Below are positions 24,736 through 57,194 of a DNA stretch of 64,000 nucleotides, piece after piece. The position numbers were made by a program, and so were the translations under genes. How positions within the stretch are numbered: position 1 is the stretch's first letter; each line of letters starts with the position of its first letter. The notes below the pieces were generated by a model, which saw only the letters and a program-made list of their open reading frames with translations, did no database searches and was not told where the DNA came from. Source of the stretch: Tubiluchus corallicola (lineage: Eukaryota > Animalia > Priapulida); NCBI GenBank assembly GCA_030141605.1, contig JAQGDQ010002382.1, positions 124,001-188,000 of the forward strand. The letters are read 5' to 3'.

Positions 24736-25435
24736 TTAAATAACAGCATATTTTAAGACTAACAATACCTGAGTGCTATTGGTTAATCTGCCATTGTAGT
24801 ATTTAGTGTTCCTGTCGTGTGGATATCGCAATTCGCCGCAGCAGCTCCTGCTTTTCAGGACAGCAATGAAACCCAACCGGAACTTCCGGTTCAGAAATCC
24901 GTACAGGACCGGATCAATCCCACTATTCGACGTGGATATCCATTGGCATATGGGTATGAGCAGTGCCAGCTGCGCATTGTTATCGGAGACAACTCCAAAA
25001 TAAACAAACGCAAACGTCAAGTACAGTGGCAGCCAACTGAAGGCGAACACCATCACAACGACTAGGACCATTTTTGCAAGTTTGAGCTTCTGTTTTCGAA
25101 CCAGCGTTTCCAAGTCACGTGTTTCACCAATCACGGGACGTCGTAAGACGTGCAGAAATATCAAGAAATAGCAAACACTTATGACAGCTAAGGGAACAAT
25201 GTAGCACTGCAAAGCTACAACGCACAAGAAGTACCATTTTGCTGCAGCGGGATCGTGCCATCCGAATTCGCCACAAACTGACAGTAATTGACCCTTGAAT
25301 ATTATATCTACGGCATCGTAATACAGCAACCAAGGAATGAAGGTCAGGCAGGAATATATCCATATAACAGCAATGAATCGTCCCGCTGCCTTCGTCGTCA
25401 TCTCATACTTCATCGGATAAACAATAGAAATGTAT
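24736..25435 (-). CDS. SIFamide/NPFF receptor-like GPCR, cassette B exon 3B (end of TM3 to TM7 and C-tail)
   Basis: Acceptor atttccAG|A completes E-R-Y. Contains TM4 W, TM5 CYIVPL, TM6 FAFSWLPLY, TM7 NSGIDPVLY and helix 8 FLNRKFRLGFIAVLKSRSCCGELRY, which resembles arthropod SIFamide receptors. Frame is intact. Confidence 0.92.
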
Positions 25436-25513
25436 CTGGAAATATAAATCTCATTATTTTTGCAATACAATAATTGCCAACAGGTGTCTCTAGTGAGAAA
25501 TCCTTTTCAAGAC

Positions 25514-26176
25514 CAGGGCCGGATTTTAATTTTGTAGGCCCCTGGGTTACAGATACATGAGGCTCCGGCCCCAGTGACAATTAAAAAAAGCGTGAATGTT
25601 GGATTCTTCAAATCAGCTTATTCAAATTCTACAAAATAATGCCAACATTAGGCCCACGTAGATGGGTGAAAGTTTAACACAACAAAAAGAGAAGAAATAT
25701 TCTGATATTTACAAAATTAAAACATGGAATACATACGAATTACAATAAATTGTAATTTTGTCACAGGAGGTGACCTCAATTCCTCTAAAATTGTGTCATT
25801 GTAATCAGATTGCTAGTGTATTTGGCAGTATCAATGAGTTCAAATAATGAACAAGAAAACAATTTCAGTGTATTATTACACAGTATATTAATGCATTCTC
25901 TAGCAACTTTTCACAGTAATTTACTTTCACTTAATTTCTGGAGGCCCCTCAACTGGCAAAGGCCCCTGGGCTGCAGCCCATAAAGCCCATGCTCTAGTAA
26001 CTTTTCACAGTAATTTACTTTCAGAATCTCTGGAGGCCCCTCAACTGGCAAAGGCCCCTGGGATGCAGCCCATAAAGCCCATGCTCTAGTAACTTTTCAC
26101 AGTAATTTACTTTCACTTAATTTCTGAAGGCCCCTCAGCTGGCGAAGGCCGCTGGGCTGCAGCCCATCTGGTACTG
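25514..26176. mobile_element. hAT-like MITE with an internal triplicated segment of about 95 bp
   Basis: Imperfect TIR CAGGGCCGGAT / ATCTGGTACTG. 8-bp TSD TTCAAGAC (25506-25513) / TTAAAGAC (26177-26184). GGCCCCTGGGCTGCAGCCCAT-type subterminal motif present three times. Confidence 0.75.
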
Positions 26177-26529
26177 TTAAAGACAATTAATGAGTTTTGA
26201 GAACTCAGCTGATTCACGGCTGTTTCAACTAGAAAATGCTCACTAAGCAGCATTAGGTTTTATACTGTACTGTGTTATACTAGCTTTAAAAATCTTTGCA
26301 TGTTTGTTAGAGATTTCGTCGTCTTTAATATAACATCAATAATTGATTCATTAAACCACCATGCATCGTCTCCCAAAAGACAGTCACCAAACTAATTTTC
26401 TTACTTATTTAATCGTTGGTAAAGAGCAAACATGACTGACTTATTCCTTATTCATTATATTAAACACTTACTGATTAATAAGACCAGATTTCAAAAGCAA
26501 GCCTCCCTTGCTCGTGTGTATTTGCTTAC

Positions 26530-26629
26530 CTCTCTACAGATATGGTAGCCAGTGTGTTCACGGAAGAGGAAACGGAAACAGCTTGAAGCCAGACAACTGT
26601 TTTGCACGCCCCATCCGAGAACGGATAAC
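26530..26629 (-). CDS. SIFamide/NPFF receptor-like GPCR, cassette B exon 2B (ECL1 and TM3)
   Basis: 100 nt. Acceptor ttcttttaaAG, donor AG|GTAAGC, phase 1-2. Encodes (S)YPFSDGACKTVVWLQAVSVSSSVNTLATISVE(R). Confidence 0.9.
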
Positions 26630-26996
26630 CTTTAAAAGAAAGCTTGTGCTAGCAAACTAGAGTTTAGATCTATTACTGTATTAGTAAGGTACTAATTATA
26701 TCTTTTATTTATCATTACTAATTGTTTTGTCTGTATTCAGGTTTTGTGGTTTTCTGCCGAGGAAAGCGCCAGTGATGCAAAGACGACAGATATATTTTAT
26801 TCAAATTTGAAAGTAGCTAATGCAAGAAAACACTTTTCATAACAAAAGTTTAAAAAATCGTCTTGAAATTTTATATCACTTACATGCTGATTGTAAATTA
26901 AAGTACAAGAGAACACTCTTCATAAATAAAGCTTAAACATCGTCTTGAAAGGTCATATTGCTTACATACTGTCTTATTGCATACAGGGCTTACGTT

Positions 26997-27370
26997 AACA
27001 GTAGCGCTGTATAGAGCTCGTAAATTTAAACTCCCGCGTTAGGCGCAGTCATTGTAATGTCAGTCGTTTGAAACAAATTTAGATAACATCGCATAAAGTT
27101 CGAAAAAATAATCAGAGCATTTGTAACACGCTCCTCGCTAACTAAGCAAAAGTATAAATTGCTTTACATTATCAATAAGATTAAAAATACGTTTTTGGTG
27201 AATCAGTGGTGCACGCTGGGATGGTGATGCAGTGCCATTCCACTAGTTGTCGCGAGCATTTAAAATTATTAAGAAATTTCTTGTCTAGTTACATTTGTTT
27301 TTCAAACAGATAAGAATGATGCATACAGAAGTAATGTAACTTCATATCATGGAAAGTTCCTAGAGACATA
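26997..27370 (-). mobile_element. Arm of the same Kolobok-like repeat family, reverse orientation
   Basis: Aligns by eye with 22778-23167 (GTAAATTTAAACTCCCGCG...TTTGAAACAA...TCTAGTTACAT). Confidence 0.75.
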
Positions 27371-28159
27371 CTGTACTTTAAAAACCGTTTTGATTCTCGT
27401 TAAAAAATTTATTATGAGGTTTTCGGTGACCGCATTGGTAATTTTATTTCATGATATGATATGATGTGATTAACATGGTAATGTTATAGCAAAGAATGTT
27501 TTTTACTATAATGTTTACGAACTGTATTCTGTACAATAATAATTTGCTAATAAAACACGCTTCATTTCGTCAGTCACAAAACAGTTCAGGTCGTGGCATC
27601 ATCCTGAATTCTGTTTGTCAGCTAAATCGATCTAGATTCGCCCTGCGTTATGACTTTCACTTAACGCTACACAAATAATTTACATATTTCATTATTGTTG
27701 TGACTAACCGACTGACTCAATACTATCTGAGGTTAATACAGCGCCCTTTTCGCCTAGAAATATACTGTTTTTTATTTTGTATTAATTTGCATTTAATAAT
27801 GGATAAAGTTACGATGATTTTATGCATGAGATGAGTTTTCTTACTGCAGTTACAAATGTTTGCGGCCTAAAATGTTTCACTGTTTACCTGTGTTTGTCCT
27901 GCACCTCCTATTAACACCGTGTATTATTTGAAATTAATTAAGATTGAACAAAAGATGGCGCTTCTATCAAAGAATTGAAACTTGAGTAGTTTTGTTACGT
28001 TAACGCCAGTGACGCACTACAAGTCCTTTTTTGTAACTTTTGTCAGCAAACAATGATGAATTAAGAAAGAATAAATGGCTTCCCATTCTTTGGGGCAAAA
28101 ATCTTGTGCATATGTCATAGATAAGAAAAAAATTAAATGTTCAAGCAGAAAGTCAGTCT

Positions 28160-28560
28160 GTGTCACCAGAAAATCATCGACTCTGCCAATCGGTTAGTAG
28201 ATCAGCTAACCATCTACTTTTCAACCTGGTAATCGATGAACTGATCTCGAAAGTCGGTTCTCGATTTGGCTATGGGATCGACGAATACCAAGTGGCTATA
28301 GTTGGTTTTACCGATGACCTAGTCCTAATCTCAGCCTCGAAACATGGCATGGGAGTTTTGTTGGAGACAGCCAATGGCTTCTTCACGAAACGAGGTATGA
28401 CACTGAACGCCAACAAGTGCAAAGCCATGAAGCTAGTCAAGGCATACCAGCGAAAGGCTATGAAAGTGTTAATAGAGCACACATGGAAGATCTGCCAGAC
28501 TCCTATTCCAATGCTGGGAGTCAGTGATACGTATAAATACCTGAGAATCCCCATGACTGC
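28160..28560 (+). mobile_element. R2/NeSL-type (RLE clade) non-LTR retrotransposon RT fragment
   Basis: LLFNLVIDELI...IVGFTDDLVLIS...GMTLNANKC...YKYL, corresponding to degenerate RT motifs 4-7. Confidence 0.75.
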
Positions 28561-30470
28561 CAACCTGTCTAGTCAACCAGCTGAGCAAATTTATTTATCA
28601 GAGAGTCCAAAGATATACCATTTGTGCTGGTGCAGCATGTAACCACTAGCGTGTGTAAAATTTAGAAAATCACGCTTAACTTCTGAGAAAACAAAACAAT
28701 AATAACAGATATGAGATTAATACTGTTTCACTTTTATATTTCACAAATATGAACTTTCACTTCATAAACAATGACGTCAGGATTCGCCAGTTAAAATAAT
28801 CCAATCCAGAAAAATGTGACACATTAATGATAAAACAGTATAGATCTTAAATGTACCACAAAAATACTGGTACTTATGTAAGTGATTTCTAGTGATGTTG
28901 ACTTTTCAGCAGTATCAGTCCTGCGTGACTTATAAATGAACAGTCAATCGCAAGGTACAATTATACGAGCTGTCATAGAAGAAATAAACTGGGGAAATAA
29001 ACCTGTTAAGCAGTAACTATGACATCAGCTACCGTTCTGTCGGTTTCTCCAATCATTGGCACCTAGTAAGAAAACTACGTCTCTAGGAATGGCAACTTAA
29101 CTTTATGATGCGTCCTTAAATGTCAATACCTTATTTTAAACTAAGTGTAAAGAAAGTGTATCAAAAAATGATGACACTATTTGCAGCAAGATAGAAAACC
29201 AAAAATGGCAGACGGTAATAACTTTATAATTTTATAACTTTATAACCTAATTTTATAATATCAGCAGTCAATTGACCAAGATACTCATAATGACGAAAGT
29301 TTAGTTCATACTTGATTTAATACTTTTTGCAAGCTATATTATTACTGTCTTGTGTAGGATCTAACTACAATGATACAGAGCCATGTAGTAATGGTTTTTA
29401 ATTCATTTGTTGCCAATTCCAAAACCAAGTACAACATCCGGACAAACTGCAGAGCTGATTCAGTCAAAAGAAGCTGGAAAGTATTGCAACTTTAGAATAG
29501 AGAATGCACATGAAATATTTCTTACTATCTCATGGTCACATCCCGTAGAGCAGACTAAAAATTATATCGTTAAGCATAATCAATGAAAAACAGTGACAAC
29601 ATATGATACCACTAACATCAACATAGACCTAAATCAGACAGTGAGGGCAACTCAAAAAATACACTGGTCTTGAAAATATAATTTTTCAGATTGCTTCAAA
29701 CTCCATTGTGATTTATATCTTCCCTGATACCTGATAACTTAATAACAACATTCAAATATTGCACAAAGGTAACATCACATTATATTAGATAGTGTAATAT
29801 AACAGGCAGCTACAACATCGTAAAGATTGCTCATACTGCCAAGTGTTAACTAAACAGGCTACTAAACAAGCCTGCTCAATCCATCAGTTCATTTATTACA
29901 AGTACACTTCTATATTCCATACTCATTACACTAATGTGTACAATCATTTTCATTGTCAACTAACTTCAACCTAGGCAAGATCAGAAGACAATATTTGGTC
30001 ACATGCTTGTCGCTACAAAATTTTCCAATCGTGAAGACAATAGCACAAGTTTCATTTGCTTTAAAATTGGTGCAATAACATCTTTGAACTTGTGAATGTA
30101 ATATAGCGTGTTTTATACAAATAGTCTGTGATTCACTTCATGACCAAGAGACCATCACAAAATTCGGCTCACATTCCAGTATCTGCAAATAGGATTATGA
30201 CAAGTACACTATTTGGGAATAATTTAACAGATGTATTGGTAATCTTGGAAACTAGTCACCATTCGAGTTACAAAGCGAACACATCACACTTAGCCCGCAC
30301 ATTGTGCAGAAAAACGTTCTCTTGTAAATTTCTCTTCTGTTATTGTTGCTGGTAACAAAAAAGCAGCTCCGTCACATGTAAGAAAAGTACCAAGTAGACG
30401 CCATCATGCACAACCATCAATGACACTAGCGACATGTGGAGCTGCTTTCAGAAACTCCTCTTCATTTTCT

Positions 30471-31206
30471 TCACACATCGTCTTTCAAAGTCGCCATACA
30501 GTAATCTACATGGGTCTGTTCAGAAACGATCCTCTGACTATTTACTGCAGATGTGGTATAGTGTCCTATCCTGTCTCCAGGATACTTCAGCTTCTTACAA
30601 CAAGACCCACTCATCACTATGGCTTTGAACCCTTGCCTGTATTTTCGGTTTAAGTAGGCATAGATGCACGGATTAATACAACTATTTGCAGTGGAAACCC
30701 ACTGAAGGACGGGAACAGCGTGATTGACGTAACTTAGTGCCACGTCATCAAAACTGTTGAAGTAATAGCCGATGAAGATGGCGTACAAAGGTAGCCAAGA
30801 AATGGCGAAAATCAAGACTACCACCAGAAGCATTTTGATGACTTGGATCCGTTGGCGACGGACAATATTCTCATACTCTCGAGCATCGCCGATTAAATCT
30901 CTTTTCCACACAGCCAAGAAAATGTTCATGTAACAAAAACTGATTGTTAAAAGTGGGGCAACATAGCAGAGGATGAAGACATTGAACAACAAATTCCACT
31001 TCATCGCGTGTTCGTACCCGTTCGGCCATTGTTCCATGCAGTAGCGTATGATTACTTGGCGATCTGCTGACGGATTATCAGTTATTTGGAAAAAAGCAAA
31101 CCATGGAATAAAAAACGCCCCGGCGCAAATCCAGATGGCAGCACAAGCTTTTCTAGCTGTCCTCAATGTCATCTGAAATTTCATTGGGTGGCAAATGGCA
31201 AAGTAT
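30471..31206 (-). CDS. SIFamide/NPFF receptor-like GPCR, cassette A exon 3A (end of TM3 to TM7 and C-tail)
   Basis: Acceptor tttttccAG|A completes D-R-Y. Contains ECL2 Cys (YCMEQW), TM6 FAISWLPLY, TM7 NSCINPCIY and YLNRKYRQGFKAIVMSGSCCKKLKY. Minus-strand AATAAA at 29892-29897. Confidence 0.93.
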
Positions 31207-31500
31207 CTGGAAAAATAACAATAAAGACAAAGTTATATGAAACTTGTTGGCTGATTGGAGTTGAACATATGTCAGATATAGCGGGGTTTTAACAAAACGG
31301 AGACAGGCTAGGAAATAGATAGAAGGTAACTACAGTTAGCAAACACTGACTAAACTGAAAAAGTTAACAAAAAATGTCTGACCATTAAGTTGGATGTTGC
31401 TGATGACTTCATTCAATAAAACTATTTTCAATCCTGTAAGACGGCAACTTACTTTGCAAGACTACATTTACAAATGTCAGTGCCACTTTTGCAGGCTTAC

Positions 31501-31600
31501 CTATCAAGAGAAATTGCCACCAAAGTATACACAGATGTCGCCACCGACAAACCCTGAAGCCATGACACCAACTTGCATGGTATCATGCCGAACTGATAAC
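31501..31600 (-). CDS. SIFamide/NPFF receptor-like GPCR, cassette A exon 2A (ECL1 and TM3)
   Basis: 100 nt. Acceptor tgtattatAG, donor AG|GTAAGC, phase 1-2. Encodes (S)YQFGMIPCKLVSWLQGLSVATSVYTLVAISLD(R). Confidence 0.92.
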
Positions 31601-33339
31601 CTATAATACAAAACACTCATGTTATAATAATAAACTAACAAAAATATCATTATGCATAAAACGATTATGCATAATTATACATAAATTATAACACTACATC
31701 AGCATAATTAATGTTAAACAATGCTAAACAATGTTAAACCCACAATAATTAATTAGCTATTGTCGTTGCTTATAGTTTTTGATCACATCAGTCAGTTAGG
31801 CACCTTCACAATAATTAATGTGTTTTAAAAAAATGTAAAACAAAAAGCAATTGTCACAATGCGATGTAATGTAAAATTTATTTTAGTCGTAATTATAAGC
31901 ACTGGGCAACTACATTACGACTGTAACAGTCAGTTACACAATAATAAGGCTTTCACAGTTTCGTTGTGCGCACGCGCAGTTGTTGTAGGTCGTAGGTTAA
32001 GTGTACCACAGCAACCCGTCGTATCTACAATCGTCACGTGACATGTGGGTAAAGTAAAGCCCAGTTCAGTAACGTCAGTGTTTTCGTGGACTTCACTTAA
32101 CTGTGCAATAGTCTGTGCGGGATCTTGTTTGGGAACAAGAGAAAATGAATTAGAATTAATTACTAATCCAATAGCATGGACTGCGAGGTGTGGTCAAGTG
32201 AACACAAATGCGTTGTCTGGTACATTTAACCTTTGACCTTTCCACGATCATCATCAATCGCTGGAACTGCGAAAAGGCTTATTAACTGACTGTACAAGCT
32301 ACTGCTATTACTATAGCTAATGCTGCTATAACTGCTACATTACCATTGCTATATAATAAACTAATTATATTAATTAATTAGCATAATTTAATTATTAGCA
32401 GTTTTCTGTATTAGTAATTATACCAATTAATCAGACCAACACTAGCAGTTAATTATCAGTATTATAATAATTCTCAATTGTTAAAACCTAATAACACTTA
32501 TTATTATTATAAGGCATAATAATTCCGTTTTGTGCAATACAACACACAATTTAACAATTGCAGACTTATCATCATCAAGTTTACAAAAATCATGGCATGT
32601 AAATTCCCTGCTCACAAATAAAAAATTAAACACAGTTAATCATGCTTTTGTGTTTAAATTAATTGTATTTGCGGGCGCTTAGAACTGCAAGAATGTGTTG
32701 GTGACATGCAGTCCACTGCACCTACATGCAGTTTACATGCAGACACGTGACATGCATGCGATAGTTGTTCTGAAACGCATAATAATTAATATGACGTTGA
32801 ACGTTGGAGGTCTGTTTAATTTCTCGCAGCTTCAAAATGAAGCCATTAATTAGGTCGTCATTGCAGCACGATAAGTGCTCGGTTCAGCTAGAGATAATGA
32901 CTTATCTTCATTATGTTAGTACGATGTGACGAAAATTACGTGTTTATTAAGCGAAAAACCATCACGCATACCGTAGATGTCAAAACCAGAAGTGCCCATT
33001 CTGAGAAAAGTAGGAAAAAATTATGGCAAATAATCATTTGCGGATGTCGTAGTAGCCAGTTAGTAAATGAATCAGCTACACATAGTGATGATAACTGTTT
33101 ATTTGGTATAATACAAAATGTAAAGGCATAACAACTCTTTTTGCAGTAGAACTTGAGTAAACACTTTTGTATCCAACTTATACCTGATGTAAAAACTATA
33201 CAACTGATTATGTTATAAAGTCACAATGATTGTATGTTAATGCATGCCCAGTTGGTTAATGGAATAAGTAGCATAAATATGAACAATTCTGACAATTTCT
33301 CAGTCAAAAAAGCTTTTGTCGTTTTAACTTTAACACTCA

Positions 33340-33539
33340 TAGCTAGTTTATTGGACAACAAGCGTATTTTCTGTTGGGAGGTTGCGGGTTCGATACTACG
33401 GTGGGGTAATACAAACACTTTTTACGTGGCACCTGCCTGGGTGGATTAACGATTCTGTAATGTAGCTGTAGTTGTTATTTACAGCCGCTGATAAACGCCT
33501 AGTGTTGTCTATTGAGTTTAAAACCATCTTTAAATAAAG

Positions 33540-33622
<83 letters not shown>

Positions 33623-33659
33623 TATTACTATTATTATTACTATTATTATTATTATTATA

Positions 33660-33731
<72 letters not shown>
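33340..33731 (+). mobile_element. tRNA-derived SINE ending in AATAAA and a (TAT)n tail (33541-33731)
   Basis: TAGCT A-box-like start, GGTTGCGGGTTCGATAC B-box, body, then the simple-repeat tail. Confidence 0.6.
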
Positions 33732-33733
<2 letters not shown>

Positions 33734-36600
33734 AAGAAAAGCAAGGCCCTCTAGGAAGTTGGGCTTATTTCAAAAATGTTAGAAAGATTTAGTAATAAAA
33801 TTGCTATAAGTGCTTCGTGTAATTAGTAAAATCTCCTTAAAATCGCGATCATTTCACGGTTGGGCGCTGCTATTTTTAAGGCCTGTTCTTCCCCTAATGA
33901 CATCGTTCATCAAAAGCAGCCCACTCTTATTTGCCGTCAAAACTGTAAGTTTTCATAAAAAATTATACAGCTAATTTTTTGATATTTTTGTTCGAACATT
34001 AGGTATGCTGCAGAAGCTTGAATTAGTTTATGCAGCGCGTGCTTACGGAAACTTACGATGCGCTTACGAAAAGTCACGAAGTCCACCAGTTACGCCACAA
34101 TTTCAAGTGAACGGTGGCAACCACCGCGCCGGAAAATTTCAAATAAAGCGAAAGTAAAAATTAACTTTATGCTTTATAGACAATTTTTGCAATTTTACTT
34201 CTTATATTTTTCTACATTTAGGTGATAGCAGTAAAATAAACCCAACATGCTAAGTGACTTGTCATTTCTTTAAAGAAAATAAGCCTAAAGGTAAAGACGA
34301 ATGATGAAATATGCTTAGCTTTAGCAGGCAGCAACTTTCTTACACAAACTGTCACTAATAACATGTATTGTTATGGTCACAGCAGCCCCGAGCATTTCCT
34401 TTATTCGAGATTTAGTAAACTTCAGCGTTTCTTACGTCTGTTGAAAAGTGCAGATCGAAATCCATTACGCTTGTTTGATGCTTCAGCGGTGTGCCTTTTC
34501 TAATTCACTTATCAGTCTGAAGCAGCGGAAATAAATTATGAGGAAAAGTTTACGCGGTGTGACGACACAATTACAGAGTGAGTCCACAGAATGGTGATGC
34601 TGCGGTCAGTGATTCCCAGTCGTCCAAATATTTTTCTTGAAACAACCGGTGATTTTCACTGAGTTGGTTGTTCTGAGATGAGGGAAGCAGAACAGCCGAG
34701 TGGCCACGGCGTGTACTTCGCGAGCAAGGCTAAGCCACGCCAGGCAGATGAATCAATCACTTGTGACCGCTTGTGTTCCATACTCTCTCTTGGCGGTTTC
34801 ATTGGCCATACGAACTGTGGATGTTTACGTTCGAAGACTAGACGATTTGAGTGCAGTGAGATGCAGCCCCAGCCGATTCAGTCCAACCTCATCCTAGCAG
34901 GTTAACTTCGTAATGAGTCACAAGGTGCAGAACGGTATAAAAAATAAAATACTCTTGGTAAAATGGCAAAAGGCAAGAAGGTCTCAGCTGGCTTTGAACC
35001 AGGTGTCTTCAGGTACACAGGTACTGTTCTTGCTGTCATCGCGTAATTTTCGTTGATTTAAAAGTGAACTCGGTAGAACTGAGAAACTTTGGCCCACCTT
35101 ACAGTGAGGAGCATTCCTTGGGGCATTCCTCATGGAACACATTGTTTTTTATGGCGCATTTCATACAGACGTCTCATGTGGAAATCAGATAAAAAAGTTT
35201 GGGATTCGTGAAAACAGTACGGATAGCAATCGCAGCACGAGTGGACCATTTGTGTGGCAAGTTAACCCCGTAGTTTAAGAAAAAACGAAACCAAAACCAG
35301 GTTTTGTTTAATTTTCTGCATTCTGAGTAAAACGTTCAAATTTTTGATTTTTACAAAAACATTGGCCTATGAACGTTTTAAACTGAATTCACTTTTTTTA
35401 GGAATGGTAGCCTATTTAAAAATGTACAACATAAATATTATTTTTGCCTAAAAGAAACGTCAATATGTGTACTTAGTTATACTTATAAAGCTTTTTCATA
35501 ATATATTTACTTTTAGTCTAAGTATCATGATGTAGCCAACATTGTTACAATTGTGTTTTTGAAAGCGTCATTTTCCTTGCGTCCTCAGTGTGAAGTGGGC
35601 CTTAGGAATTTATGTTCACCACGATCAGTGTTCTATTTTTTCGTTTTTGTAGTTGTTGCTATGGTCACGTTGTTGTCGTCATTGTCATCATCATCGTCAT
35701 CGTCATCGGAGCCTTTCAGACGTTTAGACACTACAGAAAGCAACATCATTTATGGTGCTCTCAAACTACACATATTGGTAAAGGGGTAAAGTTGCACAGT
35801 TCACATCATGCCGAGATATTTTTGGTTTGAACTTGTCGTAAGTCGATAGATTGACGAACAAGAACGAAGACAACTCCTATAGAAAGCGAATACAGCCGCC
35901 AGCGGCAATCTAGGATAAATATCCCCTTGGAATCACTTAAGCGAGCGCCGAAGTAACGCGCTCAGTAATATTTATTTTGGGCAATACATTTTAGCTTGTA
36001 ATTAGCTGTTTCAAAAATGCCATCTGCAATCGTAATATAAGATAATACTGTAATTAAAAATGTAACATACGTATTTTGTGGAATACGTATACATTAGTGC
36101 TGGATCCTGCATGCAATAGCCGCTGCTACAAAGTATGAGAAGCATTTTCATGCACTAATTTAAAAATGTGGTAAAGGCATGCTTATTATTCGTAATATAT
36201 AATGCAGTGCCAGTGCTATACATGTATAAATAACAACCAAACGTACCCATTGCAGCAGAAAGCGGTAACTTGCAGACGGTGTACAACCATAATCTCATTG
36301 TCCAGGTAAAATAAAAAAAATCTGGAGCCATCCACAAACGCACGTCGAACAGCAATAAAAACCGAGGGTAGAAAAAAGGAATGCAAACCAAAGCAATAGA
36401 AAGCACATAAGCACGAAACAGGTGCGAGCCACAACATCTAGATTAAAATGCGAAAAATTGTAGCATGTTCTGAAAAACTTGTAGGGGCTTTGTGACAGAT
36501 ATTTAACTATGGTGCAGGCTGTGTGTTTTTGCACCATCACAATTTTAAAAAGATGTAAAATAACCACATTTTAAAGTATATCACACTTAATACGCAGGAT

Positions 36601-36850
36601 ACAAACGGAGGTGTACCACAAGGATCCACTGTAGGACAACTGCTTTTTCTTAGCTACATCAATGATCTCTTTCTTATTACTGATTTCAGTACATATCTTT
36701 TTGCTGATGACAGACCCCTTAATCAAATCCATCCACTAATTCATTTCAGTTCCAACATCACAATAACAGAGAGCTAACTGGATAGAAGCATACAAATTAT
36801 CAGCTAATTACACCAAAATTAAATATATGATACTAATAAGCAGCAAAGGA
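36601..36850 (+). mobile_element. CR1/L2-type LINE RT fragment
   Basis: Hand translation gives GGVPQGSTVGQLLFLSYINDL...YLFADD. Confidence 0.8.
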
Positions 36851-40019: not shown

Positions 40020-40027
40020 TAATAATA

Positions 40028-40076
<49 letters not shown>

Positions 40077-40132
40077 CGATGATGATGACGACGACGACGA
40101 TGATAATGATGATGATGATGATGATGATGATA
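40020..40132. repeat. (GAT)n microsatellite
   Basis: Directly visible. Confidence 0.9.
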
Positions 40133-43334: not shown

Positions 43335-43765
43335 ATGCCAAGAAGCCTACAAAGCATCCACCACCACCATCATCCAATGAATCACACGTCCAGGGACATG
43401 ATTCTGCTCACCTCTCTATGCCAGGTCTCCCTGCTCGCCGCAGTGCCCCAAGTGCATTTATTTCTAAGGATCAATGCTGAAGTGTTTAAATCTTTCTGTG
43501 CAAAATCTAAATATGTTAACATTTGTCCCCTGCAGGTTTTTTAGCTGGTTCTATGGCTTGTTGAAGAGCTATCTTCACTGGAATATCATCAGGTAGTCTA
43601 AACATATGCCCAATCCATCTTAAACGGCGTCTTTTTATTTTTCTTGTCCAAGGTTCTTCTTTTATTTTTTTCATATAGATCTTTGTTTGAAATTTTCTTT
43701 GGCCATCTAATACCCAAAATGTTTCTGTAATTTCGCCTTTGAAACACATCGATTTCAAAATACGG
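43335..43765 (-). mobile_element. RTE-clade LINE 3' fragment
   Basis: FQRRNYRNILGIRWPKKISN (frameshift) KIKRRRLRWIGHMFRLPDDIPVKIAL. Short (GAT/GGT) tail near 43360. Confidence 0.8.
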
Positions 43766-44967: not shown

Positions 44968-45345
44968 AAAGGGGAAGAAAGGGGAATTTTGAAGTATATC
45001 TCAAAGAACTTTCCACATAAAGTTTTATAACTTAGCATTACACTTACCTGTTTGAAACATTTATTATGTAACTAGAAAAGAGAAAAACTAGAAAATAATT
45101 TAAAATGTTCGCGCCAACTGGTAAAACGTCACTCCAGTGTGTATCGCTGATTCACTAGAAACGCATTACAGATTTTATTAGCAAGATAAAGTAATTTATA
45201 CTTTAGCTTAGTTAGCAAAGAATATGTTACAAATGGCTAGATTATTTTTACAAACTTCACGCAGTGTTATCTAAACCTGTTTCAAATGACTTTTTTTAAA
45301 TGGGTGTTTATATTTACAAGTTTTACTAAGCGTTACTGCTAACAC
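44968..45345 (+). mobile_element. Arm of the Kolobok-like repeat family, forward orientation, in GPCR intron 1
   Basis: AAGGGGAAGAAA...ATGTAACTAGAAAAG...GTTATCTAAACCTGTTTCAAATGAC aligns with 22187-22580. Confidence 0.75.
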
Positions 45346-45606
45346 TTAGTAATTTCTTCTTCTCCCTTCCTTCTTCCTATCCCTAATCTTACTATTTTTT
45401 CCATTCCATCATGTCTACTAACCCTAACCATTCTTTCGTTCACTCATTTGTGCCACCTTAACAAGCCAAGCTTTCAAGGTGTCATACGGCAACTCTTTTA
45501 TTTGGTTAATTTGACTTCATCAACGCTTTTTTACCTATACTGTTTCTTTTTGTTTCAATAATATTGCATGTTGATGTATTGTATATGTATTGCTGGAGTG
45601 AAATAA

Positions 45607-45712
<106 letters not shown>

Positions 45713-46381
45713 CACAAGCTCTGTTTACAATAATATAGCATGTAGGTGATACAAAATTACAAGACTAATTCTTTAACCTTTATTTCTGAAAAGTGTTTTC
45801 TTATGCTTTAAATAACCGTTTCCAACGTTTGACCGCACGCTAAGCATGACAGGTTTGATGAAACGTAAGGCTTCCGCCAAGGTATAAAATTTAAGAAAAT
45901 TAATCATCACTGAAAACCAATTCGACTAAAGGTTCTAAAATTTTATTAAAACTGATGAGATGTTGAACTAATTGAAAAAGGGGAACACATATAAATGTTC
46001 ACCGCTATCTAATAGACTTCTGAAACAACTAAAAACTTCACAAGCTTCCCTGTTACGGGCGTCACGTGACAGTCTGTACTTGTTACTTGCATGATATGAT
46101 GACGTTCACGGTGACATTCGTCGACAAGCACTGAACCGAACGTGTGCTTACAGACATCCCATAACTAAAGCCCTGAGGAGCTCGCAAATTCTGAATTAAA
46201 GTATATATACGTATTTGGCAGGAAAACGAAAAATTTTTGCAAACTATAAACCGCATTCAGTGAATTTGCAAAATACTGCAGCTTTCTTTGATACTTATTT
46301 AAGACCCATCAGACTTTCTGTTTTCATTATATATTTATTTATTTATTTATTCATTCACTCATTTATTTATTTATTTATCGG

Positions 46382-46531
<150 letters not shown>

Positions 46532-46654
46532 CATACATTCATTCATTCATTCACTCAGTCACTCATTCATTCATTTACATTTGTTTATTTATTTACTATT
46601 TTATTTATACTTTTAAACTAGTTTCCGAAGCTGGCAGGTCTTTCAAAAGAATAA

Positions 46655-46925
46655 ACAGAAATAGCTCAATCGGCTGCAAGCTGTTTTTCCATGTCGAAGG
46701 TTGCCGGTTCAATTCCGCGTTTAGCAGTTAGCTTAAAGCAGTTAGAAATAAAAACAATGTTTACTGGAACTTTCTTCATGTATTGAACAAACAGGGTCAA
46801 GTTTCTGCAACACAGAAAAAAGGTTAACTCCACCCAGCGAATATAACGACGCATATATGCTTCACCCAGGTATATCAGCCCGTCGGCTACATAGTGAGAC
46901 GGGGAGATGGAGACATTAACCCAGA
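46655..46925 (+). mobile_element. tRNA-derived SINE
   Basis: TAGCTCAATCGG A-box and GGTTCAATTCC B-box, followed by a non-tRNA body. Confidence 0.55.
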
Positions 46926-48033
46926 CAATCTAGAACCTGTAGTTGCTCAATGGCTGGAACCATGTACTCTGTGTGTGTCATATAATCGCTCATCTTAGAC
47001 AACTACCTAAATATTCTGACATCGACACATCATCGCTGACATCAATATTAGCACATAATGATACCGCTAAACAAGTGGAAAATGTACATAGATGTTCGTT
47101 GTTATTTAGTTTAAAAATAATTTATTATAGGATTGGATCAGACAGTTTGAACAACATTATTTAGGATCCTCATCACAACAGACTTTATACACTATTTACA
47201 AAAACATTTACAGTAAGAATAGACTATAACTACACAAGCTGACAAGTTTTACTACAAGATTACATTAGACATTAGTAGAAAATGACGGTTAGAAAATATT
47301 AATGTACGAATATTTAAGACTGATGCATTTCATATCAGATAGAAACTACTGGAAGCGTTTAGTACGTAATATAAAGTCATGTAGGCATTGGAATATTGTA
47401 CAGTTAGCAACATAGTTAAGTTCATCTTTTCCGAATAATAACAATTTCAACAGATCATTAGTTCCTAAGGCAGCTATATTAAGGTTGTCGGGCAGAAGTT
47501 GCTATTTCAGCGAATGCCTTTGTATATTTAGACATACGAAAACTATTTTGCATTACTATTGTATAATATTGCTGCGTATAATAGTACTTGCATTTTGCTA
47601 AAAGTGTTTTTTAATATGCACCCAGTTTGCATTTACGTGACGTCACTGATGTAGCAGTAAGGAACATGCCTTGTTACGAACTTCTTACAGCTACCTTGCA
47701 ATTTGTAATTTTATTATAATTTTGTTGGTCAATAAATTACATACATACGTAGGTAAGTGACGCCCGCAGCATTTTTGATACGCCACAAATTGCGTAACGT
47801 GCAATTTGCGCATGTACATTAAGTGCATTACTAAAATAACGCAAATGGATTATAAGGTAATTTCGATGCCATTTATGGCAAAACAGAAAGCCTATGCTTG
47901 CGGCAGGCTAGTGTTAACAATTTTGAAGTAATTCGACGTAAAATTTTAACATTTATGAAAATGTCGGTCTAATTAACTTAATTTATACAAGCGAACAAAA
48001 ACATAACTTGAGGAAATGAGTTAAAGTGTTAAT

Positions 48034-48258
<225 letters not shown>

Positions 48259-51200
48259 ACTTTTAAAACAGCAATCCGTTTTCAAAACACAAAAATTAAA
48301 AACAAAATCACAATTATTGTACATTAAGTTGTTTGTCTTTAAAACATTTGAAAGATCACGTTTCGTAAACAACAACACTGCGCATTACAGTCAAACTACA
48401 CTGAATTAAACTAGACGCATCGACGCATGCACACTGCCATCTGTTTGAATACGTAATTTCGCGTGCAATTTAGATTTTGTTTTGGAAGATTTTGCAAAAA
48501 AAGTTTCTAAAATATTGCTAAATTAAACGCCTCTGGGTCTGTTTTTGCCAGCGCAGACTCAAGGTCTTAAAATGGCTGGCTTAAAATGTGACTAGGACAA
48601 GAACAAACTAATTGGCAAAACTTGAAAAGGTTGGGCAACTAAACTTACACAGCTTATAACACTCAAGGGAAATAAAAATTTTGGAGGGATGCTCGGTGAC
48701 CTATGGTGGGTCAGTCAGGGTGGTAGTTGTTGGCTGCTTAAACTACAGGTGTTTGAAACTGAGTTACATAATAAAGTGTGTAGAGATTTAATACACGCCT
48801 CTAAATTGGTCACTCCAAGTGAGTGGGCGCGGCTGACAGAAGCCAAAATGTAAAATAAGGAGTCACAGGTTCGATGACCTGTTAAGAAATTACCAGCAGC
48901 CAAATTTTTGTTTTACAAAGTAGATACCTGAGGGCATTCTTATAGTAAACAGAGATTCTATCGAATAACGTTTAGAATTCAATAAGTAATTAAACAATGT
49001 TCAAGTCAGTTGACGGAGAAAGAAAAAACTTCAGAGACATTATACTGGGAGCCGACTAGGGCACAGATCCTAAATTTTAGACTAAGCTTTTCAACATGTC
49101 TGTGAGCAGAATCCGCCAGTCTTATTTAAACGAACCAACTGAGATTGCACCAGCAAATGGTGCATTATTACATATGTACCAGCGAAATTACATGTTCTCT
49201 TAGCAGAATTAGCCAGTTTTATTTAAAAGAACCAACCGAAATGCACCGACAAATTTGCAAAACATGCCGACACAAGAAAATGGGTTAACAGAAAAGACAT
49301 TTTTGACGTAAGCATACAGCTCGAAGACTTTGGGAGTCTGGAAAAGAGTTTCATAACCTATATTGGATAACTTATAAATCATATTCCTGGTGGCAATTGC
49401 CCGAAATGATACGTTGACGGTCGGTAATTTGGACAATACAAACGTCAAATATAATAAAAATGAAGTGGATAAATACATCAAAGTTTTATGGAGTAGAAAA
49501 ATACAACATGTAAACCAGTAGACCGGTAATCCGCAAGAGATAATTCCTGTGTGGCTTAGAAAATAATGACATTCGGACCATTTACAGAAAGAGAGACACT
49601 AATGTATATAGATATTGTAAAAGAACTAACCCAAAATGATCTTATAGTAAACTGATTATACAGGATACTGTGTTATATACGAATGACATTAGCTTAACAT
49701 TATTTATGTATGTAGAAGCTACAACATATACTATTTGTACATACAGTATAACATGTATAAACAATGTACGCAATTATTAGATATATAATTAGAATTAATA
49801 AATCATAATGCAGTATTGTTAGCTTGTTTAGTAAGAAATTGTAACTGTGAAGAATTTAATGTAAAAATTTATTCAATGTACATAATGTAAAGATTCATTT
49901 AACATTTTTGTACTTATGTGCCCTGCAAATAGCGGGCTTATTGTATCATTTTCAATAAAGATTTTTAATAATAATAATAATAACAATAATAATAATTCCT
50001 GGTGGGGGACACTTTCAGCAGGTCAACCAGCAACTTTTAGTTTGTGATTAAAAGTCAAAGGCCAATTCGCAAAATTACATCTCAAACACTAGAGGAATAA
50101 AGTTCAAAACTTAATAGTATTAAGCAACAGATTAGTGTGAGGACAGATTATAGAAGGAATCCCCGGCAGCACTGAATGTGTGATTGAGTTCAAAAGCTAA
50201 TTTCTCAACTGACAAATAGCTTAAACAGTAACGAAAACTCAACATGTGGAATAAAAGCAAGCCAATTAATAAGTAAATTGACGCGACGAAAATGTTAACG
50301 CCCTTCACTTGCAAGCCTTTGAGTTTCGTACAGTCTATCTGTGACGCTGCAGGACAGTGTCTTGCAACCCAGATCTATTTACTTCATTATTACCTGAACA
50401 AAATGTCGCAGGTTGTATTTAAGTACAGTGATCGGAAACATGCATTGCCGAATTTTGATGATTAATCGCTAAAATAATTTTTGCTTGAATTAACGACTAT
50501 GAATCCACTATGAGCTCATTGATTTGCCCTCACTGCCCCAAGTTTTTTTTAAATCAATTTGTGAAACGCAATGCTTCCTCGCTTTCCAGGTGCTAAACTC
50601 TGACCGTATAACAGACGTACAAACAAAGTCTTTTTCAACATTTTATTCGCGAAATATCACAATTACAACTTACGGGCAAAGGCTCGTGTTGCACAAGCTA
50701 AAGTTTTTAATCCTTTGGAGCTTAACGACACCACATTATTCAAAACTTAATAATGTTATTGAGCGCATAGCTGTGTTGTTTGAATACAATAGTATAGCAC
50801 TATTACTCTTCCCTCCATTTTGCAAAAAAATCTTTGAGAGGCACAATAAATGCAAGTTTAAAGCAGCGCAGAAAACATTTTTTAAATTTAAGCTCAAATG
50901 AGTCTGCTGTAATTGGCGTAAATTTAGCGTAAAATTGCTGAGATACATAATTACGGCACACGTTATAGACTGAACTATCACTACATACAGTGCAACACTA
51001 ATGTTAGAAAATTTTCTATTAAATACAATGGAATTCAATTGCTCCAGCTATTAAAAATGCCAACTCGCTGCCCATATTTAAAAAAATTTATAAATTAAAC
51101 TTACTTGAAACGTATAACTGATCACTCAATCATGATTTGTTGTTTTTCATTTTCAAAAACTTCCCCTCTAGTATAATAATATTTTTATTACTTCCCACCC

Positions 51201-52002
51201 GTATTTATATTTGTATATATTGTAATATTGTATCTGTATATATTGTAATTTTTTCGTAACTAATTCTAGTGGCCTACCATAAGCTAGCTTCTTAGGTCTC
51301 TAGCGCAGAATTCATGAATTGTATCATAAGTTTGTATTAACAAAAACTGATTATCGATGCACATGTAATGTATATGTATATGTTTATTGCGAAATAAATC
51401 TATTAAATCTAAAAAAAATCTGACCAGTTGCATTTTATCTGTGTTTTATCACATACGCGTGTGCATTGTTAAGTACGTATGAGATACCCGTGACGACCGC
51501 CAAAACGAACACAGCTTGTTTCACCTGCACAAAGCTTTTCATTATGGCATGGTATTTTAAATATGGTCTGGTTATCAGTAATATCTACATTTGGCACCCA
51601 ATCATGTGTTTCGTTCAGTCAGTGCTGCTTTAAATCTAGGAAGCCACAACAACAACGGAGCAATAATCATTTAACTAACCGAAGTCTAATACATTCTGAA
51701 ATGTAGCAGTTTAACTGCTGCCAGCGTTTAACCTTTTCCAAACTTAAATCATTTAATCCAGGCCATTATCCCGGGCCACAAATTTCCATCTTTATTGCTC
51801 GCCGCATAATAACCGCCTAACACCTCACGACAATTTATGTAAAATATAAGCCGGTGCCGACATTTCCGTTTGTGAGCACTATGCTGTGTTTTGTTGCTAT
51901 GCTGTAATGGCTGATGCAGTCTGTTCAGCTTGAGAAGGGGGATTGGGGAGCAGTGAAAGACAGAGACAGAGAAAGAGACGGAGAGACGGAGAGGTAGAGA
52001 GA

Positions 52003-52192
<190 letters not shown>

Positions 52193-52277
52193 AAAAGCAG
52201 ATATACCATTTTGTTTTCACAATAACACGTATAAAATAGACTAAACATGACCCATAAGTCCGAAGCGGTGTTTTATC

Positions 52278-52554
52278 CAGTGCCGTATTCACACTTGGTG
52301 AGGATATAAGCACTATATAAGGCTCTGAGGCCCTCTTTTTTTAAATTTCGCCAATTGGTCCCAGAAAACTTGAAAATATGCGTGGCTTAATTATTTATAG
52401 CAAAGAGAACAATACACTTGACTAAAACATTACTAAATTATTACTTAAATATAAAAATGGGTATAAAACCCAATCTGGAACCTTGTTGAGGCCCCATGTA
52501 GATTGTGAGGCCCTAAGCTGTCGCTTACTCAGCTGATACCTAAACCCGGCGCAG
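52278..52554. mobile_element. hAT-like MITE
   Basis: Perfect 8-bp TSD GTTTTATC (52270-52277 / 52555-52562). Imperfect TIR CAGTGCCGTATTCA / TAAACCCGGCGCAG. Subterminal GAGGCCC motifs. Confidence 0.75.
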
Positions 52555-54956
52555 GTTTTATCTTAGTCAGGCAAGTGATTAGTACGCATTCAACAAACGT
52601 GGGTGAATGCTAAGTTTGATCCCCTTGTGTTACATAACAGGAAATAAAAGTTTTGCTTATGAAATTTTTACAAATTACAGCAGGGTTCCAGAATTGGTCA
52701 GCTTCGACTTTAGAGGTCAAACAGATCATTCGGGAGGTCTAAAGTAGGTTTAAAAGAGGGTCGAAAACTGACATTCGTATAGAAAATAAAAATACATAAA
52801 ATACTAAGATAAAATATAATTTGTTTATACATTAATGCCTAACTCATATATAATCATAATTCATAAGTCTTGATTATCTATTTATTTTATATTCAGTTTG
52901 CTAGTACACAATGATATCCATATTATGTTGTTATTATTATGGTAATAATTTATGATTAATTGGAACCAAAAGGCAATGGACCGTTATAGTACCAATGTTT
53001 CTATATTTGGATAAATTGACTTACATTTTCTTTCCCTTTATCGTGTTCTATTATTTAAAAGACTCGATGTAATCATCATCAACACTGAAATCTTTTGATA
53101 TTTGAAATTTTTTTAGTTCATTTTACTTCAAAACTGGGTTGTGGCAACGTTAGATAGAGTGTCCCGGGCTTCCTAGTTACTTCATTTCCTGTCCTATTCA
53201 CTTACGTCATTTCCTAGTTACGTCACTTCCTGTCCTACTCACTTACGCCAGATTTCATGAGGAGGTCGGTGGTTTAAAGAGTTTGGTTTTCTAAACTACA
53301 GGCTGCCAGTGAGTTGACTATTTCAAATACATCGCTTTATATGAAGTCAGATGTCATTTGAAGATCACTGATGACAATTGGATATATTCACAAAATTAGC
53401 AGCAAGCTTGTAAAAAATTCTCAAGAATTATGAAAAAAAATTTGGTCTATCATCCAGCATGGAAGCAGGCATGCGCTATTTTTCTTGCGCTTGTAGTATT
53501 AGTCAGTCCAACACTCGCATTTGTATTAGGATTCATAATGATGAAATTTGAGAAAAGCAATATATGTAAAGTACACACAAATGAAACTTTGATGAAAATG
53601 CTGATAGGAGTAATATTATATGAAAGTCTAACGTCCGCGAGTCTACTTAGGGACACCCAATTGCCCTTGGACAGTTTCATAAAGCAAAATATATCGTTTA
53701 ACTGCAGGCAGCGGTTTTACGCATTATTAACTTTCTCCTCCTTCTCTGCTTTCTCCTCTTCTTCTGTGTCTCTTTTAAGGGCGTATAAACATAGTCAAAC
53801 TCCAAGTGTTCAGCAGAACTCGGGAAACTTTTGATTGGCCCCTAAAGTGGTATTTTTGTACGGTAATTTAGTTATTTGCTCAAAATATACAGAAAAATTT
53901 ACGCACGAAAAGAACATACGTACAAAACATATTCTGTATCTAAGTCAACATTTTTATTACGCTAGGTCTAACAACAGACAGCGAGTGCAAGTCTCCCCTT
54001 GGTGCTGCGGGCTGCCGTATCGGCTTTTAGTTATCCATATGCAACGGAATATTTTTCTGTTTCAAGACAAGTTTATACAGTTTCAAGACAAACTTTTATT
54101 GCTTGGAAACAGTTTGTACTTTGGAAGTTTAGAAGTGGGACTTTGCTTGCTTTGTTAAATTTAAGTTTGTTCTGAAATTAAATGTTTGTAGTGGATTAGC
54201 GTGCCCTCGTAAGACAAGGACAACATTTATTTGCTGTCGCTTGTTTAATAGACAACACTTGCACTAACAGTTATTTAGCGGCTTATACTTAAAACAATAT
54301 GGATAAGGACACTTAAACACGAATATGTAGGGTATGTGCCCTGACATTGGTAGCCGGTAGTCTCGAACTCAAGACTGCATGTCCGAAATCTAGACCAGTC
54401 GGCCAACCAACCCAAGACAATGCTGCTACGTCAATTATTACTTCGGGTCTTCCTTAAATTTTTTCCAACTTCTAATTTCTGAACACTCCGTTCAAGACTA
54501 GAATAATCTCCTCTCGATAAGAAGTTGACCAACAAGCACTTTCCACGATTTTTCGGGCGCCATAATTCAGTAAGCTCGCAAGACCATAAAAAACTTTTAG
54601 CGTCAAGTTTCAGCTTCTGTTTGCAAACAATATTATTTCTGAAAAATTGTATTCATCTTATTTAATCTTGCATAATCCTCGACAAATTTCGTTGAGCCAC
54701 TTCATAAAATAATCCTTGCTAAATCCGCCGATATTCTTTCACGGCGATCAACAGCAATCTTTCTGTCGTCATTAGTGGGTTCTTACTGCACAATAACTTT
54801 TTCATAGCGGATTATCAGAATGAATGTGATTGGAGCTTCCTCTGATTAGCAAAGGGAAGTCTTCCATTCTTTATGAGTGTTTGTTGTCGTGCAATCATTG
54901 ACTACTGCAGAGATTATGCAAAGAAAACTTAGCCTGGTGGATAAGAGTAGAATTTA

Positions 54957-55330
54957 TCATCATCATCATCATCATCATCTACATCATCATCATCATCATC
55001 ACCATCACCATCATCATCATCATCATCACCATCATTGTCATCGTCACCATCGTCGTCGTCATCGTCGTTTTCATCATCATCATCAACAACATCACCATCA
55101 TCATTACATCGTCGTCGTCATCGTCGTTTTCATTATCATTATCATTGTCGTCGTCGTCGTCATCATCATCATCATCCTCATCACCATTATCGTCATGATC
55201 ATGATCATGATGATGATCATCATCACCATCATTGTCATCGTCATCATCGTCGTCGTCATCGTCGTTTTCATCATCATCATCGTCATCATCATCATCATCA
55301 ACATCACCATCACCATTACATCGTCATCGT
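54957..55330. repeat. (CAT/CGT)n imperfect microsatellite
   Basis: Directly visible. Confidence 0.9.
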
Positions 55331-56923
55331 TATTTCGCGTCGTCACTATTGTTTTCGTCACTTCTCAGAACATTATTCCCCTATAGTTATAATATTGCTA
55401 TAATACGCAAAACCGTCTTACAACAACTATACCTCCTTCATTCTTTTTTCATCCTTCAAACATCAACATCACTCACCAATGTTTTCATCGTCGTCGTCGT
55501 CGTCGGTAGCTCATTGTCGATGTCATCTGTTCTTGTTATCATTGCCAGTAACTTTGTCTGTTTTTAATCTACCCTTTGCTAGTTTGGTTTTGTTTTATGA
55601 CGCAGATTTGCACGTTTATAGAAATACAATCTAGACGAGCGCATCCCTTCTCATTAAATGCAACACTTAGAGAGAAATGTGCTGGTAAATTGTTTCTAAA
55701 CAACCCTAATTGTTGAGTTGAACAAACATTAAAAGCCTTGTAGGTAAAGGCGAAATTACTTGCATTTGCACAATTATTTTAACATACAAACTACATGTAT
55801 TTTTACAAGCAAATGAAAAAAAATTGTAATCAAATCTTATCTCTGGCCTTCAGGTGTGAAAATAAATTGATAAAGTGGGTGTTATGGTGGCCATAAGAAC
55901 GGAAGAAACGTGATAATGGTAAAGGTACTTTCACATGCATACAGAATGTGCTGCGATGATGTCGATCGGGCAGACGATTATTCACTTGTTTCGTTGGAAG
56001 TACATTCCGTAAAAATATGAAAGCACCTTTAGTTATTATATAGTCAGAAATTTATTTTATCGTAAAAATAAGCTTCGATGAGATTGCTGTATTACAAAGA
56101 AAGTTCTTAGAAAACAAAAATATTGCCGCATGAAATAAATGTAATATCGCGCAACAAAACAAAGTTGCCAACGAAAGTGTTTTAAATAATTATCTGATAA
56201 AAGTAAACAAGTTACTATTGGATGAAGCTTGAAATATTGTCTAAAACAAATACTAGGCATCATTTCGAATTTCGAATAATGCTGGAAAAATATGCAGGTC
56301 ACGACAAGTGATCGTCACAACAGAATGTGCTTTTTCTGTTTTTTTTTCACTGAAAACTCAACAGTTATTTTAATTAGAATAAAACGATAATAGTCTTTAA
56401 AAACAAATTACCAAAAAGCTCCCTTCGCTTGTAAGCCTATAATTTCTCCAATGGGCTTTCTTGATTTTTTTCGGTGAATTTTTTCAACCAATCACCATTC
56501 TTACTGGGTAATGAGCTTGAGCTCTTACAAATTAGAAAAGTTTCACAAGAGTTCACTGCTGTACCTGAAGATTATAGTCCCTATACGACGTCCTCATAAC
56601 ATTAATTTTAAATACGTAATTGTTAAATTATTATTTAAAGATAGTCACGTGTGTCTCTTCTTTCCCATTATTGAACATTATTTTATTATAAACTAACACA
56701 TTCGTACAATAATTCAATTTTCATTCGTCTTAAATGCAAAATTTGATAATTTTTAATTACCTGGTACATGCGCATTAACTAATTAATTATATTAGTAACA
56801 ATTCTTACCTATGTTAGGGTGCAATGAACAATTCACCTTACAATAAGGCTACAGATGAATCTGCCATTGGCTCTATTTTAGTGTTTAAAATGAATGATTA
56901 CCGTTAGAAGTGTGCATACTTAC

Positions 56924-57194
56924 TTGCAAATAAACTATTGACTAGATTAAAAGGTAAACAGAAGAGCAACACCAATATGTCCGCCGCCGCAAGGTTAGCA
57001 ATGAAAAGATTGGTAACGTTCCACATGTGTGGACTTCGAATCACCACAGCTAACACAAAACTGTTTCCAACCACTCCCACAATGAACACTATCACGTACG
57101 CCATTGTTAGAAACACTATTTCCCAGTTATGGTCCAATTTTAGCTCCGTGCTGTAGGATAAGTTAGTTCTCGATATATCGGTGGAATTCGACAT
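56924..57194 (-). CDS. SIFamide/NPFF receptor-like GPCR, first coding exon (N-terminus, TM1, TM2)
   Basis: aaacATG with an upstream in-frame TGA (57300-57302). Encodes [13 protein letters not shown] (N-glycosylation sites), TM1 [24 protein letters not shown] and CLPFNL. Phase-1 donor A|GTAAGT. The exon's own acceptor ttttcttatAG at 57308-57309 implies an upstream UTR exon. Confidence 0.93.

Follow-up and report, generated by a model that had tools for sequence, protein, structure and literature searches.

A SIFamide/NPFF-type receptor locus of Tubiluchus corallicola with one TM1-2 exon and two probably alternative 3' cassettes

The locus and its predicted products

We analysed 64 kb of DNA of Tubiluchus corallicola (contig JAQGDQ010002382.1, positions 124,001-188,000, assembly GCA_030141605.1; hereafter the window, whose own coordinates are used throughout), which contains a locus for G-protein-coupled receptors (GPCRs). 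Five coding exons were identified, all on the minus strand: exon 1, which encodes the N-terminus and the first two transmembrane helices (TM1 and TM2), and two downstream exon pairs, here called cassette A (exons A2 and A3) and cassette B (exons B2 and B3), each of which encodes TM3 to TM7.

Exon 1 (56924-57194, 271 nt) comprises the N-terminus, with N-glycosylation sequons at residues 3 and 11, TM1, the first intracellular loop (ICL1) and TM2, and closes with a phase-1 GTAAGT donor. Its start codon is fixed by an in-frame stop at 57302-57300 and by an acceptor-like AG at 57309-57308, the latter with a strong pyrimidine tract, and there is no upstream ATG. As judged from the sequence, probably no other coding exon precedes the TM1-2 exon, a non-coding one probably lies further upstream, and the 113 nt at 57195-57307 of the same strand are probably the 5' untranslated region (UTR) of the TM1-2 exon. 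About 380 nt upstream of the acceptor, at ~57695-57670 on the minus strand, we observed the palindrome GTCACGTGAC together with an ATTGG, a candidate E-box and a candidate CCAAT element.

The two cassettes are built alike. A2 (31501-31600) and B2 (26530-26629) are both 100 nt long and of phase 1-2, and encode the first extracellular loop (ECL1) and TM3 as far as the Arg of DRY in A and of ERY in B, so that each cassette has an intron inside this Arg. A3 (30471-31206, 736 nt) and B3 (24736-25435, 700 nt) encode ICL2, TM4 to TM7, helix 8 and the tail, ending in a TGA and a TAA stop respectively, and B3 has DPxxY instead of NPxxY. The intron between exon 1 and A2 (31601-56923) measures 25,323 nt and holds many microsatellites and dispersed repeats and no TM1-2 remnant; the A2-A3 intron has 294 nt, the exon 1-B2 intron 30,294 nt and the B2-B3 intron 1,094 nt, the last with a 92-nt minisatellite array (25894-26167). 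Between the A stop and B2 lie 3,841 nt (26630-30470), a spacer with the A 3' UTR, a decayed LINE (long interspersed element) fragment and a high-copy dispersed repeat.

All acceptors are AG and all donors GTAAG, and every join is GT-AG and in frame. Exon 1 joined to A2 and A3 gives an open seven-helix frame of 368 aa, and exon 1 joined to B2 and B3 one of 356 aa, both without internal stops; Pfam 7tm_1 scores above its cut-off in exon 1, A3 and B3. The exons, phases, splice sites and product lengths proposed in a first-pass annotation of the window, made from the letters alone, were therefore all recovered. A chimera of exon 1, A2 and B3 is open as well (356 aa), because the exon phases match, while A2 plus B2 in one transcript would shift the frame.

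Past the B stop, the first AATAAA, a candidate poly(A) signal, is found at 24456-24461 on the minus strand. A possible donor, CAG-GTATTG, cut between 24769 and 24768 of the minus strand, lies ten codons ahead of the B stop; its use could give B a different end in place of the final 10 residues, whose codons are AT-rich and intron-like, and cassette B may have one more last exon beyond B3. A splice from this donor to a downstream exon with PPxY motifs was considered and dropped, that exon being phase-matched to its own upstream TM exon.

Taken together, these exons probably form, though with considerable room for doubt, one SIFamide/NPFF-type locus in which the sole TM1-2 exon is alternatively spliced to the A or the B pair, and the gene would then likely yield two, or even three, different receptors.

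Family, divergence and ligand pocket of the cassettes

Phylogenetic analysis was carried out on 22 rows, namely the two cassettes and 20 proteins picked as named or nearest, and the tree was rooted on five rows, three of them named mollusc or annelid, with no other receptor family as named outgroup. A, B, two Priapulus caudatus proteins and three Logan proteins formed a clade of seven rows (99/96) that is sister to the arthropod SIFamide receptors (100/99), and the identical seven rows grouped in a fast tree of 176 of 184 proteins (support 81). The best named relatives are arthropod SIFamide-receptor-like proteins and two Priapulus caudatus NPFF-receptor-like proteins, and of the 10 top matches that were looked up, 9 proved to be SIFamide/NPFF-like, unnamed or hypothetical, while another family is named by none of the ten. 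The predicted products are SIFamide/NPFF-type class A receptors, in agreement with the initial family call. In the protein searches no protein was identical to either join; B3 gave 0 of 367 candidates at 1e-10, A3 gave 2 of 106, and exon 1 gave 6 of 248, all of them arthropod-type first-exon open reading frames (ORFs) by sequence. Such arthropod-type ORFs share their end point with exon 1.

The cassettes had been described as strongly diverged and both as under selection, and the present data bear out the two statements. A and B share 113 of 259 aligned residues (44%), with identities of 0.52, 0.66 and 0.34 at first, second and third codon positions (239 codons), and with matches at only 8 of 36 fourfold sites, a level that corresponds to saturation. 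Both joins carry the core class A motifs (GN1.50, D2.50, C3.25, D/ERY, W4.50, P5.50, xWxP, N/DPxxY and helix 8), and the disulfide cysteines, the CWxP-type SWLP and the CC motif are intact in both cassettes. In a simulation of neutral substitution, in which indels were not counted, B stayed free of stops in 229, 32, 2 and 0 of 2000 runs at 0.05, 0.1, 0.2 and 0.5 substitutions/site. Since silent sites are saturated, yet the frames are open and the core GPCR and amide-pocket residues kept, the A/B duplication is read as old and both cassettes as having been under purifying selection. Such past selection is no proof that B is in use today.

The same figures bear on a second explanation, according to which B was once complete and lost its promoter and front exon in a recent deletion; what remains would be an orphan or a young pseudogene that exon 1 reaches by leaky splicing at best. 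Two long-separate genes would equally show the A/B divergence and the past selection, a young orphan would still be open at fair odds (229 of 2000 at 0.05 substitutions/site), and the DPxxY and the AT-rich, intron-like end of B also count in its favour. However, the time window is narrow, with 32 of 2000 runs open at 0.1 substitutions/site and indels uncounted, and DPxxY is frequent among class A receptors. B has also kept its three splice sites and the tested core motifs intact, and no front-exon remnant was detectable in the window. We therefore consider a recent orphan quite unlikely.

Between A and B the helices range from 8 of 20 to 16 of 29 identical residues, while ECL2 has 4 of 25 and ECL3 3 of 14. 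Conserved helices with divergent extracellular loops are the usual pattern among GPCR paralogues. For NPFFR2, the excerpted text of PMC12069643 places the amide of the peptide against T2.61, Q3.32 and H7.39 and its Phe on V3.36, L5.42 and W6.52, with the Arg bound by E45.52. These positions were assigned in A and B by alignment, with our own residue numbering. Both cassettes keep Q3.32, V3.36 and E45.52, both have Tyr at 6.52, and both have Gln at 7.39, as in arthropod SIFamide receptors; position 2.61 is an Asn encoded by exon 1 and hence common to both receptors. The predicted deep pocket is common to A and B and the outer loops differ. Because Q3.32, V3.36, E45.52 and Gln 7.39 are kept in both, we infer that A and B would both bind C-terminally amidated peptides; their selectivity would differ through ECL2 and ECL3, and their coupling possibly through ICL2, ICL3 and the tail. 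The earlier suggestion of different ligand pockets is weakened, the deep-pocket residues being the same in A and B and the divergence lying mainly in ECL2 and ECL3.

Sharing of the front exon, and the surrounding sequence

The first-pass annotation had reported a single TM1-2 exon and had proposed a tblastn search for another. This search, run at loose settings, recovered the five known exons and no further TM1-2 exon in the 64-kb window. A TM1-2 hidden Markov model (HMM), built from exon 1 and seven relatives and run over 3870 ORFs of at least 10 aa, matched exon 1 at 3e-37, the runner-up reaching just 0.85, and so found no second TM1-2 exon in the window, and with single-helix HMMs the next-best values outside exon 1 were 0.34 (TM1 only) and 0.21 (TM2 only). 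A decayed copy was sought by reading the TM1-2 HMM through stops (next-best 0.16) and with an nhmmer DNA profile (0.26), and none was found in the 64 kb. Ordinary tandem duplicates each have their own TM1-2 exon, and B has none within the window. In favour of a shared exon 1, the spacer ahead of B measures just 3.8 kb and consists in part of UTR and repeats.

The reading frames upstream of A2 and of B2 are closed by stops. This bears on a third explanation, in which B is expressed without TM1-2, either as a headless modulator of four to five helices from an internal promoter or with a front exon trans-spliced from another locus. Truncated GPCR modulators are known, and an in-frame Met is present near the start of B3. 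However, the stops that close the frame upstream of B2 are many, and features that are of use to a full receptor only are preserved in B2 (the TM3 disulfide Cys, Q3.32 and a phase-1 acceptor), so that we regard both variants as very improbable.

Under the splicing of one TM1-2 exon to either cassette, which we favour, receptor A would result from the proximal acceptor at 31600 with 3' processing near 29.87 kb, whereas for receptor B the exons A2 and A3 would be skipped, the poly(A) site read past and the acceptor at 26629 used. A third, chimeric receptor would join A2 to B3. The arrangement could have arisen by an old tandem duplication of exons 2-3 alone, or of the whole gene with a later, long-ago loss of one front exon.

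Several observations weigh against this explanation. The splice to B would span 30.3 kb, leaving out two good exons and passing over a poly(A) site. The AATAAA at 29892-29897 (minus strand), the first past the A stop and the candidate signal of the first-pass annotation, is indeed present, but it lies 574 nt downstream of the stop on a strand with 1.39 AATAAA/kb, which is about what chance would give. Docking/selector pairing near the splice sites was looked for in 3 region pairs, and the counts lay within those of shuffles. A doubled cassette was found in 0 of 56 related loci, just 5 of which reach 10 kb, and the front-exon searches cover just 6.8 kb upstream of exon 1. In addition, the layout that A and B have in common, which had been noted earlier, is ancestral: of 13 related loci (picked from the 56), 12 have an acceptor or intron ahead of the DRY Arg, and exon 2 has 100 nt in both loci that include it (L009 and L012). 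The A/B layout is best read as inherited from the family ancestor and says nothing on the sharing of the head, because any duplication, whole or partial, would show the ancestral structure.

A further difficulty comes from Priapulus, where XP_014677779 (NPFFR1-like) and XP_014672862 (NPFFR2-like) are separate genes with different TM2 ends, on different contigs of at most 73 kb and 156 kb. Because Priapulus shows whole-gene duplication, with full separate paralogues, it is plausible that A and B are ordinary tandem genes and that the TM1-2 exon of B was lost to an assembly collapse at a spacer repeat or is interleaved upstream of position 64000. The LINE fragment and the high-copy repeat inside the spacer are in keeping with a collapse, and sequencing run X1 has no single contig that bridges the whole spacer. 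The window is, however, without N, and the X1 contigs listed within the spacer and over B2 (26427-26785 and 27508-28116) match it with 0 differences, although this run possibly comes from the source sample itself. The repeats in the spacer are short as well as diverged, and an interleaved exon would require an intron of >37 kb enclosing a same-strand paralogue. On balance a missing front exon is unlikely, although it is a serious contender.

X1 covers introns and behaves as DNA, and its listed pieces over the cassette exons likewise show 0 differences. Its depth of 12-30 around B, against ~5 around A and low again beyond B, does not give a copy number and was set aside. Another run, X2, which is RNA only by guess, covers neither exon 1, A2, B2 and B3 nor any junction; its animal reads were filtered, and so this lack of cover weighs neither way. 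One 189-nt X2 contig places its first 80 letters on 30520-30441, over the A stop, with 6 differences, the two listed ones sharing a codon in which Leu is kept; it has a diverged source and concerns A only. Cassette A is flanked by diverged inverted repeat copies (27062-27372 versus 44993-45291, 70% over 318 nt) and by a second inverted pair (26824-26888 versus 45737-45802, 85%). It is conceivable that they loop out cassette A, but the family is high-copy and palindromic, so the pairing is likely due to chance.

The relatives offer some information on which head belongs to which body. A pairs with P0013 (98/96), so an A-type body is present in another public record. The grouping of B with XP_014677779 is weak, which counts against the shared exon: B joined XP_014677779 and P0030 in 527 of 1000 bootstrap trees, and A and P0013 in 410 of 1000. 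In the AU test the A+B clade had a p of 0.122 and was neither shown nor rejected. Residues exclusive to pairs were also tried for the origin of the cassettes and gave no resolution (6 for A+B versus 7 for A+P0023). The TM2 end of exon 1 is identical to that of XP_014677779 at 14 of 20 positions and to that of XP_014672862 at 11 of 21. XP_014677779 has Ser-Tyr at the junction, and its body is slightly nearer B (89/200) than A (81/201). That heads of the exon 1 type and bodies of the B type truly go together is thus weakly suggested by XP_014677779, which joins an exon 1-like TM2 end to a body slightly nearer B; exon 1 lies directly upstream of A, which gives some support to a head-A pairing as well. 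The XP_014677779 model begins inside TM2 and is probably incomplete. The SIFamide receptor appears expanded in the clade containing Priapulus, with at least 4 fast-evolving body types (P0001, P0013, P0015, P0023, P0030).

A broader version of the shared-exon explanation would be a mix-and-match locus, in which one head is used with A2-A3, B2-B3 or A2-B3, so that three receptors differ in their TM3 and TM4-7 pockets, extra heads possibly lie upstream, and the combinatorial arrangement is conserved across priapulids. We hold this version to be doubtful.

Other features were detected in the window. At 10612-11862 (plus strand), two Cys-rich exons and a hydrophobic end resemble a glycosylphosphatidylinositol-anchored Ly6/uPAR three-finger protein (Quiver/Lypd6-like), with Pfam UPAR_LY6_2 below its cut-off (E 0.0048). 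The downstream neighbour of the receptor locus, on the minus strand, consists of a candidate Cys-rich exon (16474-16310), a single-TM exon (~15400-15240) and a long cytoplasmic tail (14236-13592) with two PPxY motifs; these suggest a Nedd4-adaptor-like membrane protein, for which there was no convincing Pfam match. LINE reverse-transcriptase remnants (Pfam RVT_1) are found at 7326-8735 (minus strand) and at 28121-28642 (plus strand), the latter in the spacer between A and B. High-copy dispersed repeats lie at 21994-23093, 26825-27370, 31951-32283 and 44993-45802, and a 239-nt inverted pair (22378-22616 with 22737-22975) resembles a miniature inverted-repeat transposable element. Apart from the array in the B2-B3 intron, minisatellites occur at 12963-13621 (66 nt) and 9693-9914 (28 nt).

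Comparison with known systems

The closest parallel is the ecdysis-triggering hormone receptor gene (ETHR) of insects, which the first-pass annotation had rightly cited as a precedent for alternative 3' exons. In the excerpted text of PMC5572281, the alternative 3' exons of ETHR-A and ETHR-B span TM4 to the C-terminus, being exons 4A and 4B in Bactrocera, and the mosquito ETHR isoforms, with an overall identity of 43.4%, have sensitivities to peptide that are 28- to 320-fold apart (PMC5572281; PMC8291126, the latter likewise in excerpt). As in ETHR so described, a class A peptide-GPCR gene would here combine one common 5' part with two alternative, diverged 3' modules, both having stops of their own. 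Unlike ETHR, the swap starts right after TM2 and takes in five helices, the unit has two exons, a chimera would be possible and the receptor family is another; in addition, the ETHR isoforms were cloned and assayed, whereas the Tubiluchus receptors are known here from sequence alone.

A similar design is seen in the Drosophila octopamine receptor OAMB, where OAMB-K3 and OAMB-AS differ by an alternative last exon and in their signalling (Ca2+ or Ca2+ plus cAMP), as excerpted from PMC2650798. Like OAMB, the locus described here would make two GPCRs with one head by alternative 3' ends, but in OAMB only ICL3 onward is exchanged, in an amine receptor. With a single 5' coding part in the 64 kb and two intact, in-phase, diverged 3' modules that were under selection, the Tubiluchus locus resembles the genes of the ETHR/OAMB type. 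Its swap begins not at TM4 or later but at ECL1/TM3, with two exons, and because of this we regard it as a variant of such genes rather than a member.

The locus resembles the arthropod and lophotrochozoan SIFamide receptors and the vertebrate NPFFR1/2 in tree position, three-exon layout, 100-nt exon 2, DRY intron and amide-pocket residues. It is, however, only ~40% identical to them and has long branches, with Asn instead of Thr at 2.61 and without the TM6-end Arg of arthropod receptors. The extra SIFamide-like receptor of insects is described as a second GPCR in passages of PMC4237046. A literature search, supplements lying outside it, found no shared-head/two-cassette arrangement for SIFamide/NPFF receptors and nothing on priapulid SIFamide receptors.

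Clusters of duplicated 3'-terminal exons with matching phases are, in passages of PMC3923563, regulated by poly(A) choice and easily mistaken for tandem gene duplicates. Unlike the clusters so described, the unit here is an internal plus a terminal exon and makes up about three quarters of the protein. Loci of this kind may be undercounted, because gene predictors would call B a truncated gene or a pseudogene.

If exon 1 joins both cassettes, the ETHR design would have arisen independently in another receptor family and in a little-studied ecdysozoan lineage, in which SIFamide receptors are apparently expanded, with seven sequences falling into four body types. The same TM1-2 would have remained compatible with bodies that are only 44% alike, which bears on the modularity of the seven-helix fold, and under the mix-and-match version the locus would be a natural experiment in which TM1-2 and TM3-7 evolve as exchangeable modules. 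The swap would take in five of the seven helices and both main extracellular loops, as well as every G-protein-facing loop but ICL1, and would thus be a deeper splice swap than those of ETHR and OAMB as published.

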